Notes under the pieces: model-generated
Databases searched by the model: none
Told to the model about the DNA's origin: nothing
The model's input: only the letters and a program-made list of their open reading frames with translations
Translations under genes and position numbers: made by a program
Source: a virus
Lineage: Duplodnaviria > Heunggongvirae > Uroviricota > Caudoviricetes
IMG/VR virus record: IMGVR_UViG_2541047701_000003
Length of the DNA stretch: 44,188 bases
Reading direction: 5' to 3' (one strand)
Shown: positions 500-43,912 of the stretch, piece after piece
How the letters are laid out: the number at the start of each line of letters is the position of its first letter
Numbering within the stretch: the first letter of the stretch is position 1

Positions 500-602
500 G
501 CAAGGCAACTAAGCCTGCATTAATGCCAACTTTTAGCGCACGGCTCTCTCCCAAGAGCCATTTCCCTGGACCGAATACAGGAATCGTATTCGGTCTTTTT
601 TT
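500..602 (+). ncRNA. sdsR: SdsR (RyeB) Hfq-dependent small RNA, 3' end reconstituted by phage sequence; 5' end approximate
   Basis: Sequence ...gcctgcattaatgccaacttttagcgcacggctctctcccaagagccatttccctggaccgaatacaggaatcgtattcggtcttttttt matches my recollection of SdsR including its terminator hairpin CCGAATAC/GTATTCGG plus U-run. Confidence 0.6.
577..602. repeat. attL core (direct repeat shared with attR)
   Basis: acaggaatcgtattcggtcttttttt here versus acaggaatcgtgttcggtctcttttt at 43096..43121; adjacent to integrase gene. Confidence 0.6.
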
Positions 603-637
603 AATTGTATTTAAAATCAATTAGTTGCAACCGTCTC

Positions 638-666
638 CCCGAAATTACTCGAAATTTACTCGAATT
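638..666. promoter_or_regulatory. Candidate integrase arm-type binding sites (left arm)
   Basis: cccgaaatt followed by actcgaaat and actcgaatt between attL core and int; a similar cccgaaatt..actcgaaaa pair occurs at 42952..42980 near attR. Confidence 0.35.
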
Positions 667-733
667 TCTGTATTCCGGTCTTTTTTGGTTATATCACAAC
701 CAAAACACATTTAACAATCCATTTACGTTAAAA

Positions 734-1810
734 TCAGAGCAGTAAGTACGTTTTTTCTCTCTCATCAAGATACATTTTTGTTGTCTTCTCCGATGTGTGG
801 CCAAGTAGACGTTGAGCAAATTCTTCCCCACATGTTTCTTTGTACAATCGTCCAGCCAGGCTTCTGATCTCGTGAAAAGTTGGTGGGTTTTCACTGAACT
901 GGATACCTGTTAATTTTCTGGCTGCGACAAATTTCTTTGTCAGGCCGTCCGGGTGAATGCTGCCGTCAGGGCTGTTTTTTCTAATCCCGGCACTGATTAG
1001 ATAATCCCCCCTACTTACCATGCGGCACTGTTCAACTACTGCACCAAGTCGTAAACCAGCGACAGGAAGGCTGAGTGACAGGGGGATAGCAATCATCATT
1101 CCTGTCTTAATTTGCCTGATGTGGAGACGATCATCATAAATCTCACTGAACCGCATATTTGTTATGTCTTCGCGACGTTGTCCTGTTACAAGGGCTAAGT
1201 CCATAGCTAATGGGAACCATGTCGGAAGTTGATCTGCTGCCTCCCTGATGCAGTTGTATGTCTTTAGTTTCAGCCGTTCTCTTGTAACTACTATTTTCGG
1301 TGCTCTTGTTGGCGTTACTGGATTTTGAGATATACGTCCTTCAACAATGGCCTCGCGGAACATATCAGATAACACAGAACGCATTGATCCTGCCATCGTG
1401 TTTTTCCCTCCTTCAATCCACAAATCAAGAAACTCGGCAATATGGCGAGTGGTTATTTCTGTCAGTAAAACCCCTCCTAATTTTTCTTTTATTGTCTCCA
1501 GTTGATTTACCCGAATTTTATAAGTATTTCTGGACACTTTTCTCCTTATAAGAATCGTTTTGTAACGTTCAATCCAGTCTGCCATAGTAAATGAGTCGAA
1601 CCCTTTTAGTTTTTCAATTAAGGCAGCAGGAGAGTAGTTTTTGTATATATAATGATTTGCTTCAATTGCCTGCGCTACTGCATCTCTTCTTGAAATTTTA
1701 CCTAGTGTAAATTCTTCTTTCGTCAGAGGGTTGCGCCAGTAATATGCTTTGTCCCTCCTTCGATATGTTAAGTTTTTAGGCAAATTGGGATCGTATTTTT
1801 TCCGCTGCAT
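734..1810 (-). CDS. int: Tyrosine integrase, lambda Int family
   Basis: 358 aa; alignable by eye to lambda Int along its length ([29 protein letters not shown]-terminal catalytic motifs); adjacent to attL. Confidence 0.85.
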
Positions 1811-2057
1811 GTTTTAACTTCTCCAGTAACGGACTGTCTCTCCCTTGTCGCCCATTAGGCTGATGGTGTGTTATATCGGTATCAACCTTATTTGGGTTGA
1901 TATAGAAAGCTTCCGGAACCACCCTGTAACTCCTCCCGTGTAGTTCAGGTGCAGGATAAATGTTTCCATTCCTTGCCCATCGTCTCAGCGTTGATATTGA
2001 TGGTGGGTTATCCGGATATCTGAGTTTTCCCCACGTTTTGAGTGTCACAAGATTCAT
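1776..2057 (-). CDS. xis: Excisionase (Xis-like)
   Basis: Small basic protein immediately upstream of and overlapping int; start chosen at second ATG (MNLVTL...) which has AAGAGG at suitable spacing. Confidence 0.6.
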   Translation of the reverse strand: MNLVTLKTWGKLRYPDNPPSISTLRRWARNGNIYPAPELHGRSYRVVPEAFYINPNKVDTDITHHQPNGRQGRDSPLLEKLKHAAEKIRSQFA

Positions 2058-2163
2058 TGCCATACCTCTTACGATATGACCGCCAGTAAATATACAGAAT
2101 ACTGGCGGGTGTGGTTGATTTTTAATAATCAGCTATGAAGTTCTAATTTGTATATAATGCAAC

Positions 2164-7636: not shown

Positions 7637-7988
7637 AATTATCTCCATTTTTACAAATGAATTTTGTCGATGCGGTGCCTGGTGCCTCCAGGTGACGTTA
7701 ACCAGTTAACAATTAACGCCGGATAATCCACCCATAACACTGATGCTTTTAACTGTGCCGCGTGCGCTTAGCCGCATTCACCGCATCACAAAATTCACTT
7801 TAAAAAGGGGCGGCAGGGCAGCCACGGAGTAGAACTGATGCCGCCAAAGACTACACATAGCAATGTCGTTATTTACAACCGGAGGCGCACTCCCACCATT
7901 TAAATTTAACAGACAAGACCGACTCTTTATGAATACCGGAAATGCGCCTTCGTGTTGTGCGCCTGTCTTTTTACCACTTCAGGCTCGG

Positions 7989-15171: not shown

Positions 15172-15325
15172 AAACGGTTTGCGGGAAAAGGAGAGTTAAG
15201 TAGAATTGCTGCGGGTGCTTGAGGCTATCTGTCTCAGGCATGAACACCAAAAGGCAGATAGAGAAAAGCCCCAGTTAACATTACGCGTCCTGCAAGACGC
15301 TTAACATTAATCTGAGGCCCAATCT

Positions 15326-15538
15326 ATGTCTCACAAATGTAGGTTAGCCTCTTACGTGCCGAAAGGCAAGGAGAAGCAGGCTATGAAGCAGCAAAAGGCG
15401 ATGTTAATCGCCCTGATCGTCATCTGTTTAACCGTCATAGTGACGGCACTGGTAACGAGGAAAGACCTCTGCGAGGTACGAATCCGAACCGGCCAGACGG
15501 AGGTCGCTGTCTTCACAGCTTACGAACCTGAGGAGTAA
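15326..15538 (+). CDS. mok: Mok-like reading frame (N-terminal extension of hok)
   Basis: 70-aa ORF in frame with hok, as in chromosomal mok/hok loci. Confidence 0.45.
   Translation: MSHKCRLASYVPKGKEKQAMKQQKAMLIALIVICLTVIVTALVTRKDLCEVRIRTGQTEVAVFTAYEPEE
15383..15538 (+). CDS. hok: Hok/Gef-family type I toxin
   Basis: 51 aa MKQQKAMLIALIVICLTVIVTALVTRKDLCEVRIRTGQTEVAVFTAYEPEE, typical Hok sequence; 5'/3' fold-back complementarity in flanking RNA. Confidence 0.75.
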   Translation: MKQQKAMLIALIVICLTVIVTALVTRKDLCEVRIRTGQTEVAVFTAYEPEE

Positions 15539-17538: not shown

Positions 17539-17564
17539 CTCAATCTGTTATCCGGGGCTATATT
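17535..17564 (+). promoter_or_regulatory. Candidate late promoter pR'
   Basis: TTGACT (17535..17540) - 18 nt - TATATT (17559..17564) directly after Q stop. Confidence 0.4.
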
Positions 17565-17625
17565 CCTCACGCGCCAGCAAAATCTGGCGTCGGGATTGGC
17601 GTCCTGGATAGAGACCGCGACAGAT

Positions 17626-17648
17626 ACACGCCGCGAGCGTGTTTTTTA
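17626..17648 (+). terminator. Candidate tR' terminator
   Basis: ACACGC-cgcga-GCGTGT followed by TTTTTTATT about 60 nt downstream of the -10. Confidence 0.5.
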
Positions 17649-17808
17649 TTGTCGTATGCACGCGCACATCTGAATTATGGTGGGCTGTGTGGGGGCGGAG
17701 AGATCCGCGCCGGTCGGTTTCCCGGTTACGCCAACCCCGCACAGTTCACCACCAGACGATTGGCGTCGTCGGTGGTGAGTTATTAAGAAACCACCAGAGG
17801 GCGTCATT

Positions 17809-42618: not shown

Positions 42619-42951
42619 ACTGATGCATTATACAAGTAATGCTGTTATTGAGGAAAGTTTAAAGAAGCGGCTCTTCTCCGCCTGTAAAGTTTGGTCATTA
42701 TTGCTTTATATATAAGTTCCACCAGTAGGCGATCATCTATGATGTTGGCGTATCGACTTTGTATAAGAAGTTTCCAGTCGGAGATAAATGAAACCGTAGC
42801 ACGTCGTATGCAAGAACGTGCCACGGCTGGCTGATGGACGTTCGATAGCGCGAGTTTGAATGAAAATCAGCCGGAGGTGATTTTACATAATTGTTGCGGA
42901 ATCATTCAATATAGGGATTGCTTATTTCTGCCTGGATTGGTCTGAAATAGT

Positions 42952-42980
42952 CCCGAAATTTTCTCTAAAAAACTCGAAAA
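42952..42980. promoter_or_regulatory. Candidate integrase arm-type sites (right arm)
   Basis: cccgaaatt and actcgaaaa, matching motifs next to attL. Confidence 0.3.
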
Positions 42981-43095
42981 AAATGGTAACTAATTGAATG
43001 CATTAATATGCAATGGTACGTGTTTGGGATTAAAAGATGAGCGTGATTTTGTTTAACACATTAATTTAAAAAGGGTTTCTTGTTTGTTGACGAAA

Positions 43096-43121
43096 ACAGG
43101 AATCGTGTTCGGTCTCTTTTT
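43096..43121. repeat. attR core (direct repeat, displaced copy of sdsR 3' end)
   Basis: acaggaatcgtgttcggtctcttttt matches 577..602 at 24 of 26 positions. Confidence 0.6.
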
Positions 43122-43255
43122 ATCTGTTAAAAGCCAGAAGCATTCCCTTCGCTGACTTTATAGTCAACCATAACACACACTCTACTGTCTGAGTCCAGCG
43201 TTTTTTAACATTCTTGTTAAGATTATGTGATCTTTAGCGCGGGAGGAAAATATTG

Positions 43256-43912
43256 ATGAAACAGCCTGCGCCCGTTTATCAGAGAATTGCGGGTCATCAA
43301 TGGCGACATATCTGGCTTTCAGGCGATATACACGGTTGTCTTGAGCAGTTGCGCCGCAAATTATGGCATTGTCGTTTTGATCCGTGGCGAGATTTACTTA
43401 TCTCAGTGGGAGACGTTATCGATCGTGGGCCGCAAAGTTTACGTTGCCTGCAGTTACTGGAACAACATTGGGTTCGTGCGGTAAGAGGCAATCATGAACA
43501 GATGGCGATGGATGCGCTGGCATCCCGGCAGATGTCTTTATGGTTGATAAATGGCGGCGACTGGTTTATTGCGCTGGCAGATAATCAACAGAAACAAGCG
43601 AAAACGGCGCTGGAAAAATGTCAGCATTTGCCCTTTATTCTTGAATTACACAGTCGCACCGGCAAACATGTTATTGCTCATGCCGATTATCCAGATGATG
43701 TCTATGAATGGCAAAAGGACGTCGATTTGCATCAGGTCTTGTGGAGCCGCTCGCGATTAGGTGAACGCCAAAAAGGGCAGGGAATTGCAGGTGCTGATCA
43801 TTTCTGGTTTGGTCATACACCTTTGCGCCATCGCGTGGATATTGGCAACCTGCATTATATTGATACCGGTGCTGTCTTTGGGGGAGAACTGACTCTTGTG
43901 CAATTGCAATAA
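43256..43912 (+). CDS. pphA: Serine/threonine protein phosphatase 1 (PrpA/PphA)
   Basis: 218 aa MKQPAPVYQRIAGHQWRHIWLSGDIHGC...; metallophosphatase motifs GDxHG, GDxxDRG, GNHE; GGGAGG SD. Confidence 0.85.
   Translation: MKQPAPVYQRIAGHQWRHIWLSGDIHGCLEQLRRKLWHCRFDPWRDLLISVGDVIDRGPQSLRCLQLLEQHWVRAVRGNHEQMAMDALASRQMSLWLINGGDWFIALADNQQKQAKTALEKCQHLPFILELHSRTGKHVIAHADYPDDVYEWQKDVDLHQVLWSRSRLGERQKGQGIAGADHFWFGHTPLRHRVDIGNLHYIDTGAVFGGELTLVQLQ

Follow-up and report, generated by a model that had tools for sequence, protein, structure and literature searches.

The integrase (Int) of phage lambda is the textbook heterobivalent recombinase, and its regulation resides in which arm site is bridged to which of the four core sites. 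In lambda there are exactly four core-type sites, none of them in an arm, and the P' arm runs in the order C', H', P'1, P'2 and P'3, after which comes the int stop codon (PMC4880445). According to PMC7380047 and PMC3333887, which cite Balbontin et al. 2008, the Salmonella prophage PhiW104 and other prophages integrate at the 3' end of ryeB/sdsR, and the same papers present the sdsR locus as a known insertion hot spot. For the Yersinia prophage vB_Yen_24-YE00064, PMC12653942 gives a 27-bp att beside yebY.

The stretch of DNA analysed here, called the window throughout, comprises 44,188 nucleotides (IMG/VR virus record IMGVR_UViG_2541047701_000003) and contains a lambda-like prophage of about 42.5 kb, which lies between yebY and pphA and is inserted in the terminator of the sdsR small RNA. 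PhiW104, the Yersinia prophage and the prophage of the window share the same locus and a type of core that consists of the last ~23-27 bp of ryeB/sdsR and is internal to ryeA. The early genes of the prophage are Rac-like and include a RecT-family ORF and RalA. Small-RNA genes above Rfam thresholds occur at 2168-2346, 7808-7859, 15213-15388 and 17558-17756; the small RNAs of the prophage are RalA (the antitoxin of RalR), DicF, sok, IsrK and a C4 antisense RNA with a1/b1 targets. The flanks and the core sites are the following.

1-342, YebY coding sequence, left flank
503-602, plus strand, sdsR/ryeB small-RNA gene (Rfam RF00111, 118 bits, full length)
606-462, minus strand, SraC/RyeA antisense RNA (Rfam RF00101, 180 bits)
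569-578, plus strand, B, the host-derived left hairpin arm GACCGAATAC, in a 10-bp perfect inverted repeat with 586-595
579-585, plus strand, O, the putative 7-bp overlap/crossover AGGAATC, which is the terminator loop
586-602, plus strand, C', the phage-derived right half-site GTATTCGGTC (586-595) with T7 (596-602), the SdsR terminator tail
43089-43121, plus strand, attR core: phage C GACGAAAAC, O AGGAATC, host B' GTGTTCGGTC and the tail TCTTTTT
start near 43256, pphA, right flank

The att core of the prophage is the SdsR/RyeB terminator hairpin, and the common core is 27 nt long. For the hairpin a folding energy of -14.9 kcal/mol (z = -5.6) was obtained, and a scan of positions 350-950 returned it (568-596) as the single terminator-like site. 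At attL the C' side bears the phage-type bases A588 and T597, where attR and the empty attB have G and C; the attR copy of the core (43096-43122) accordingly differs from the attL copy at two positions, G43107 and C43116. The right part of attR is identical to the empty attB of L001, an unoccupied site in another E. coli strain, and the attL-type bases are present in both attPs that join the phage arms, one from a free-phage record (L003) and one from a viral-contig locus (L055). The host form of the attL core region, with its two mismatches, was found in ~5,260 E. coli genomes. This comparison of bases in attL, attR, attB and attP therefore assigns the DNA to the right of the loop to the phage at attL and to the host at attR. 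The final 24 nt of sdsR (579-602) are prophage-supplied in this lysogen. On the left side, the phage arm GACGAAAAC diverges from the host arm three bases ahead of the loop. Taken together, attL, attR, the empty attB of L001 and the free-phage attP of L003 place strand exchange inside 577-587. These limits fit a 7-bp overlap that coincides with the hairpin loop and is flanked by inverted half-sites, B and C' in attL and C and B' in attR, with cleavage points predicted from the sequence comparison. The order GACCGAATAC/AGGAATC/GTATTCGGTC in attL and GACGAAAAC/AGGAATC/GTATTCGGTC in the attP of L003 is that of a lambda-type core, and we infer that B is the left core-type site of attL.

In L144, L145, L129 and L134 variant host left arms (GACTGAATAC, GACCGAGTAT) are complementary to the phage-supplied right arms (GTATTCAGTC, GTACTCGGTC), which indicates that the phage C' follows the local host SdsR stem; L093, with a G-U pair, is an exception to this complementarity. 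The SdsR 3' end is itself altered by lysogeny (586-602 compared with 43105-43121 and L001): the host G in the stem becomes A, so that a G-U pair is turned into A-U, and the tail UCUUUUU becomes UUUUUUU. Beyond 606, upstream of the RyeA 5' end, the DNA is that of the phage, and the native flank lies 42.5 kb off, beside attR. In PhiW104 lysogens RyeA is reported to be down and RyeB up (PMC7380047), and the rewritten SdsR and RyeA ends of the present lysogen fit that drop and rise. These changes at the locus are also of consequence for the physiology of the host. A separate peculiarity of the locus is found in the metagenome scaffold L160, where sdsR is short of ~30 nt, GCCTGCATTAATGCC...CTCTCCCAAGAGCC being collapsed between two AGCC, and gene calling merges CopD with YebY into one fused gene; either a true deletion or an error of assembly may lie behind it.

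The arms and the genes next to them contain the following features.

615-627, plus strand, IHF-like site AATCAATTAGTTG, which fits the consensus WATCAANNNNTTR exactly by pattern match and is the putative H' equivalent
637-669, plus strand, three direct repeats CCCCGAAATTA, CTCGAAATTTA and CTCGAATTTCT with a 10-11-bp period, the putative arm-type sites P'1-P'3
670-686, plus strand, second C'-type half-site GTATTCCGGTC (670-680) with T6 (681-686), abutting P'3 directly
687-733, plus strand, 47-nt block GGTTATATCACAACC...TTTAACA from the second site to the int stop, in E. coli and Salmonella types only
734-1810, minus strand, int, an ORF for a lambda-family tyrosine integrase of 358 aa, stop codon at 734-736
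1776-2063, minus strand, xis, an excisionase-like ORF overlapping the int start
42952-42999, plus strand, P-arm arm-type repeats CCCGAAATTTT, CTCTAAAAAA and CTCGAAAAAAA and an IHF-like site TAACTAATTGAAT

Int shares 38% identity with lambda Int across 97% of its length and 41% with HK022 Int, and the domains PF09003 (arm-binding), PF22022 and PF00589 are present on its close homologues (99% identity). The counterpart of xis is annotated as an excisionase in L004, and PF07825 (Exc) is matched in sister-clade loci. The P' arm reads, in order, C' with its T-run, a variable spacer that includes the IHF match, three repeats, the second site, the 47-nt block and the int stop. The pattern AAATCAA....TTR recurs at the position of the IHF-like site in the E. 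coli and Salmonella types; in Serratia/Yersinia-type arms (e.g. L088) the bottom strand carries the IHF match (TTGTTGATTTTA...), about as far from the core. Three copies of the motif nnnCGAAwwT lie in the P' arm (637-669), and the P arm has two to three (42952-42986), followed by the IHF-consensus match at 42987-42999; the P-arm repeats and IHF match are conserved in the attPs of L003, L055, L002, L069, L150 and L152. Judged from these patterns, both arms carry repeated arm-type sites that bear no relation to the crossover sequence, with an IHF match between arm and core, which is the lambda-type organisation, and by analogy with lambda the repeats would be bound as arm-type sites and the IHF match would be used.

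In 28 non-redundant arms (pairwise identity <88%) none of the three arm repeats varies in its CGAA. The repeats show concerted evolution: the trinucleotide before CGAA is particular to the lineage (ACT, CCT, GTC, TTC, TAT, ACA, CTC, GCC or CCC) and recurs in all or most of the copies. L149 and L088 have four arm repeats rather than three. The 687-733 block, conserved within the E. coli and Salmonella types, is missing from the Serratia/Yersinia type and from the sister clade. An 8-bp inverted repeat (TTTTGGTT/AACCAAAA) at 683-705 could form a hairpin, for which compensatory changes were not seen; its sequence is conserved.

The second site is a near-copy of the right half of the core. The sequence GTATTCCGGTCTTTTTT (670-686) equals GTATTCGGTCTTTTTTT (586-602), which is the core right arm with its T-run, with one inserted C, and against the C' of the window it matches at 10 of 10 positions plus that inserted C, as expected of a core half-site. 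It has the same orientation as C' and lies 84 bp from it, start to start. The likeness to the right half of the att core that the first-pass annotation had placed at 669-686 thus holds for 670-686, a start at 669 adding one T. The same annotation was also right that the acaggaatc part is absent: ACAGGAATC is not duplicated, and the 9 nt upstream of the second site are CGAATTTCT, the third arm-type repeat. Among 20,000 dinucleotide-preserving shuffles of the 131-nt arm, the 16-mer was never recovered within one edit (0/20,000) and was recovered within two edits in 27, so that coincidence can hardly account for the match. On both strands of the 44-kb window, the places within two edits are the attL core, the second site and the attR core, and there is no other. 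The minus strand of the second site (GACCGGAATACAGAAATTCG) also resembles the core left arm plus loop, because the core is a palindromic hairpin; comparison across relatives supports the reading as a direct, C'-like repeat. A conserved C'-like copy was searched for in the P arm and none was found. The sequence GGATTGGTCT (42934-42943) had been considered as a C-like counterpart there, and its likeness is probably due to chance, since it is gone in L055 and L150.

Comparison with the attP of related phages, which had been suggested as a check on the site, with absence of conservation as the refuting outcome, showed that it is conserved. It covered 147 loci with a recognisable core and an Int 60-100% identical to that of the window, from E. 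coli, Salmonella, Citrobacter-like, Serratia, Yersinia and other hosts, and all 147 are inserted at the sdsR terminator. The second site is present in 146 of them and is still recognisable in the sister clade. Most E. coli and Salmonella types have the form GTATTCCGGTC; in the Serratia/Yersinia type and several others the site reads TATTCGGTC, which equals C' exactly, and TATCCGGTC, TATACGGTC and TATTCCGGCC are variants of few lineages. Exact copies of C' over 12-17 nt are present in L067, L077, L079, L085, L033, L140 and L146, and in the last two the match to the core extends over 16-17 nt, into the CG of the overlap. In L149 the second site is shifted along with the added fourth arm repeat, which shows that its position is set by the last arm repeat and not by the core. 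In the Serratia/Yersinia type it directly abuts the int stop codon.

The sister clade consists of 361-aa integrases ~50% identical to that of the window, with the same sdsR target; its members include L154, a phage record, and prophages found in E. coli, Klebsiella, Enterobacter and Pantoea. Here the third arm repeat is followed by ATATTCGGTCT (L154) or by the more diverged ATATCCTGTCT, ATATACTGTCT or ATATCCGGCCT, which overlaps the int stop codon, so that conservation in this clade is partly due to coding. The element matches C' at 7-8 of 11 positions and is about as degenerate as the phage's own C site. The next relatives beyond the sister clade are lambda, HK022 and the Hafnia phage Pocitis76 (Int 38-41% identical), all of which are without a second site. 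In lambda and in Pocitis76 (38-39% identical), where a copy was looked for and not found, P'3 runs directly into the int stop, and the second site is therefore a shared derived feature of the sdsR-targeting integrases. Among representative genomes, viral contigs, phage records and chromosomal loci, no relative using a different core was found down to ~50% Int identity. Covariation between the two copies can be seen in L129 and L134, where C' and the second site both read TACTCGG; it is not seen in L144/L145 (GTATTCAGTC vs ATATACGGTC) or in L031/L047 (GTACTC vs GTATTCC).

Does such conservation mean that the site is used? Among the 28 arms, column conservation is ~40-60% in the spacer, rises to ~80-100% in the second site and is lower again downstream. 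In closely related E. coli-type arms 82% of the columns segregate in the segment designated spacer2, compared with 18% in the second site and 20% in C', and the spacer before the repeats is the sole polymorphism hot region. An inert duplicate, that is, an ancient copy of the right arm kept by slow evolution of the P' arm or by gene conversion from the core, is an unlikely explanation of this pattern. On the one hand, the sister-clade element has moved away from C' and matches it at 7-8 of 11 positions, minor indels and base changes are tolerated (the extra C, TATCC, TATAC, GGCC), the joint change in L129 and L134 could reflect conversion and not selection, and the E. coli-type block downstream of the second site is also poorly polymorphic. 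On the other hand, the spacer 30-40 bp off has diverged almost completely in the same genomes, and a neutral 11-mer is not expected to be 80-100% identical down to 60% Int identity and recognisable at 50%. Repeats of 10-17 nt are, moreover, poor substrates for conversion and prone to deletion, yet 146 of the 147 loci retain both.

Such a deletion has occurred naturally. The attL of L030 (IMG/VR UViG_2728369554_000022) lacks 84 bp from the core right arm to the second site (...CGTATTCGGTCTTTTTT|GGTTATATC...), which takes out the IHF-like site and all three arm repeats. It looks like direct-repeat slippage, and the prophage is probably unable to excise. When the L030-type junction was sought in complete E. 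coli genomes, the best 15 matches were all undeleted, with the two pieces spanning ~204 nt. The 84-bp direct repeat is a deletion hazard: as L030 illustrates, attL can lose its IHF and arm sites, which would probably lock the prophage in place. Since these repeats carry a risk of deletion, retention of the second site suggests that it brings a benefit.

The flanks of the element provide information about which part of Int, if any, recognises it. The core of the arm repeats, CGAA(T/A), is common to them and to the second site, and the CGAAT of P'3 makes an inverted repeat with the ATTCG of the second site; in L154 there is also a close likeness between the element's lower strand (GACCGAATATT) and the arm repeat of that phage (TCCCGAATTTA). 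It could therefore be argued that the site binds something else than the core-binding part of Int, either as an inverted fourth arm-type site for the N-terminal domain or as a site for Xis or a host protein, and the constant distance from the last arm repeat would suit either. We regard this as rather improbable. In the arm repeats the trinucleotide before CGAA differs among lineages; the second site ignores it and on its lower strand has GAC before CGAA, reading AGACCG like C', in 27 of 29 lineages; an inverted arm-type repeat was rejected on this test of its flank. The stretch identical to C' also takes in GGTCTTTT and, in both L146 and L140, the CG of the overlap, and the Xis and Fis sites of lambda are in the P arm, not in the P' arm (PMC4880445).

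An RNA-level element was considered as well, either a back-up terminator for read-through from sdsR or late genes into int antisense or an element of the int mRNA 3'-UTR. The T-run that follows the second site in most lineages and a weak hairpin between P'3 and the second site in some relatives (-4.1 to -7.4 kcal/mol) are in keeping with it, but the corresponding fold in the window (-2.5 kcal/mol, z = 0.05) does not surpass that of shuffled sequence on either strand, and no hairpin is found in two other lineages either. The scan gave the sdsR terminator (568-596) alone and no promoter, and L154 and the sister clade are without the T-run, which makes such an element very unlikely. A terminator or conserved RNA hairpin was rejected after folding, for which the plus strand of the window and of five further lineages and the minus strand of two were used, gave no structure common to them.

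The first-pass annotation had also proposed that the element could be a relic of an earlier integration event, and this idea did not survive. A scar of this kind would be the degenerate att of another element that once occupied sdsR, and the status of the locus as an insertion hot spot, described in PMC3333887 and PMC7380047, gives it some plausibility. However, the second site lies inside the attP of the free-phage records L003, L002 and L154, the empty attB of L001 has no second copy, and the DNA between the copies consists of the phage's own IHF-like site and arm repeats, with no foreign remnants. A relic att site is also at odds with presence in 146 of 147 loci, a conservation higher than that of the adjacent spacer, a position fixed by the last arm repeat and an age as old as the clade, and we give this explanation almost no credence. 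The second site is likely to have originated in a one-off ancestral duplication of C', and the word relic is apt in that evolutionary sense only. One of the free-phage records requires a comment of its own: L003 (PP818812.1, 'Actinobacillus phage vB_Apl-pPE4') has an int and attP 97-98% identical to those of this prophage, and its stated Actinobacillus host looks doubtful, given this near-identity and a core that is the enterobacterial sdsR terminator.

The other suggestion made at first pass, an additional core-type binding site for the integrase, has to be divided in two. Conservation supports the option of a functional site, and its retention across relatives makes a working role in the integration machinery probable. 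It is not a recombination core: there is neither an inverted partner half-site nor an AGGAATC overlap matching attB, the 7-9 nt upstream being the P'3 repeat CGAATTTCT, and for this reason the second site cannot support strand exchange and is at most an accessory half-site. That it is an accessory, non-recombining C'-type half-site for the core-binding/catalytic part of Int, with binding predicted from its likeness to C', is the reading that we prefer, and we consider the chances of it to be about even. Counting against this reading are the drift of the sister-clade element away from C', the mixed covariation with C' and the limitation of lambda, the paradigm, to four core-type sites outside the arms. 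The additional C of the window's copy might weaken binding.

Under the preferred reading of an accessory half-site, the right arm of the core would have been duplicated in the ancestor of the sdsR-targeting integrases and then retained, and the core-binding/catalytic part of Int would bind the copy. An Int with its N-terminal domain on P'3 could at the same time grip the adjoining C'-like site, and this two-point anchor would stabilise the loading of Int on the P' arm. Alternatively, the second site may park a protomer that is later delivered to the near-identical B' of attB. A more specific proposal is that in the sdsR-targeting integrases of the lambda family the end of the P' arm serves as a fifth core-type site that does not recombine; it would hold the catalytic half of the P'3-bound Int and, as a parking or anchoring site, tune intasome assembly or the direction of the reaction. 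An element of this sort is foreign to the lambda paradigm, and the proposal is put forward tentatively, with the balance of probability somewhat against it.

Compared with lambda, the prophage has the same three-domain Int (38% identical), an imperfect inverted-repeat core around a putative 7-bp overlap, an IHF-consensus site between the core and three close direct arm repeats, and an int gene that ends beside the P' arm. It is unlike lambda in the extra C'-like half-site after P'3, where lambda P'3 meets the int stop, in the arm-repeat motif nnnCGAAwwT, which is unrelated to that of lambda, and in the target, which is a small-RNA terminator here and the gal-bio intergenic attB in lambda. The second site resembles the half-sites of tyrosine recombinases (C, C', B and B' of lambda and the arms of loxP and FRT) in that it is ~10 bp long and near-identical to the C'/B' of its own system. 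It differs from the half-sites of lambda, loxP and FRT in having no inverted partner or attB-matching overlap and in adjoining an arm-type site. As represented in the papers that cite Balbontin et al. 2008, the PhiW104 literature describes the core and the RyeA/RyeB levels, and no arm half-site. The literature searched, with Balbontin et al. 2008 covered through these citing papers, offered no earlier instance of a fifth core-type site or of a core-like site placed in a lambda-type arm. Integration at the ryeB/sdsR end and the lambda-type arm layout were thus already known, whereas the conserved extra core-type half-site in the arm is new with respect to that literature. If the second site is inert, it is a tidy detail of an ordinary lambda-type attL. 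If the proposed role is true, the site would represent a new kind of intramolecular Int contact beside P'3, which could help explain how Int is loaded on attP and attL in these phages and would add a small twist to the lambda Int model.
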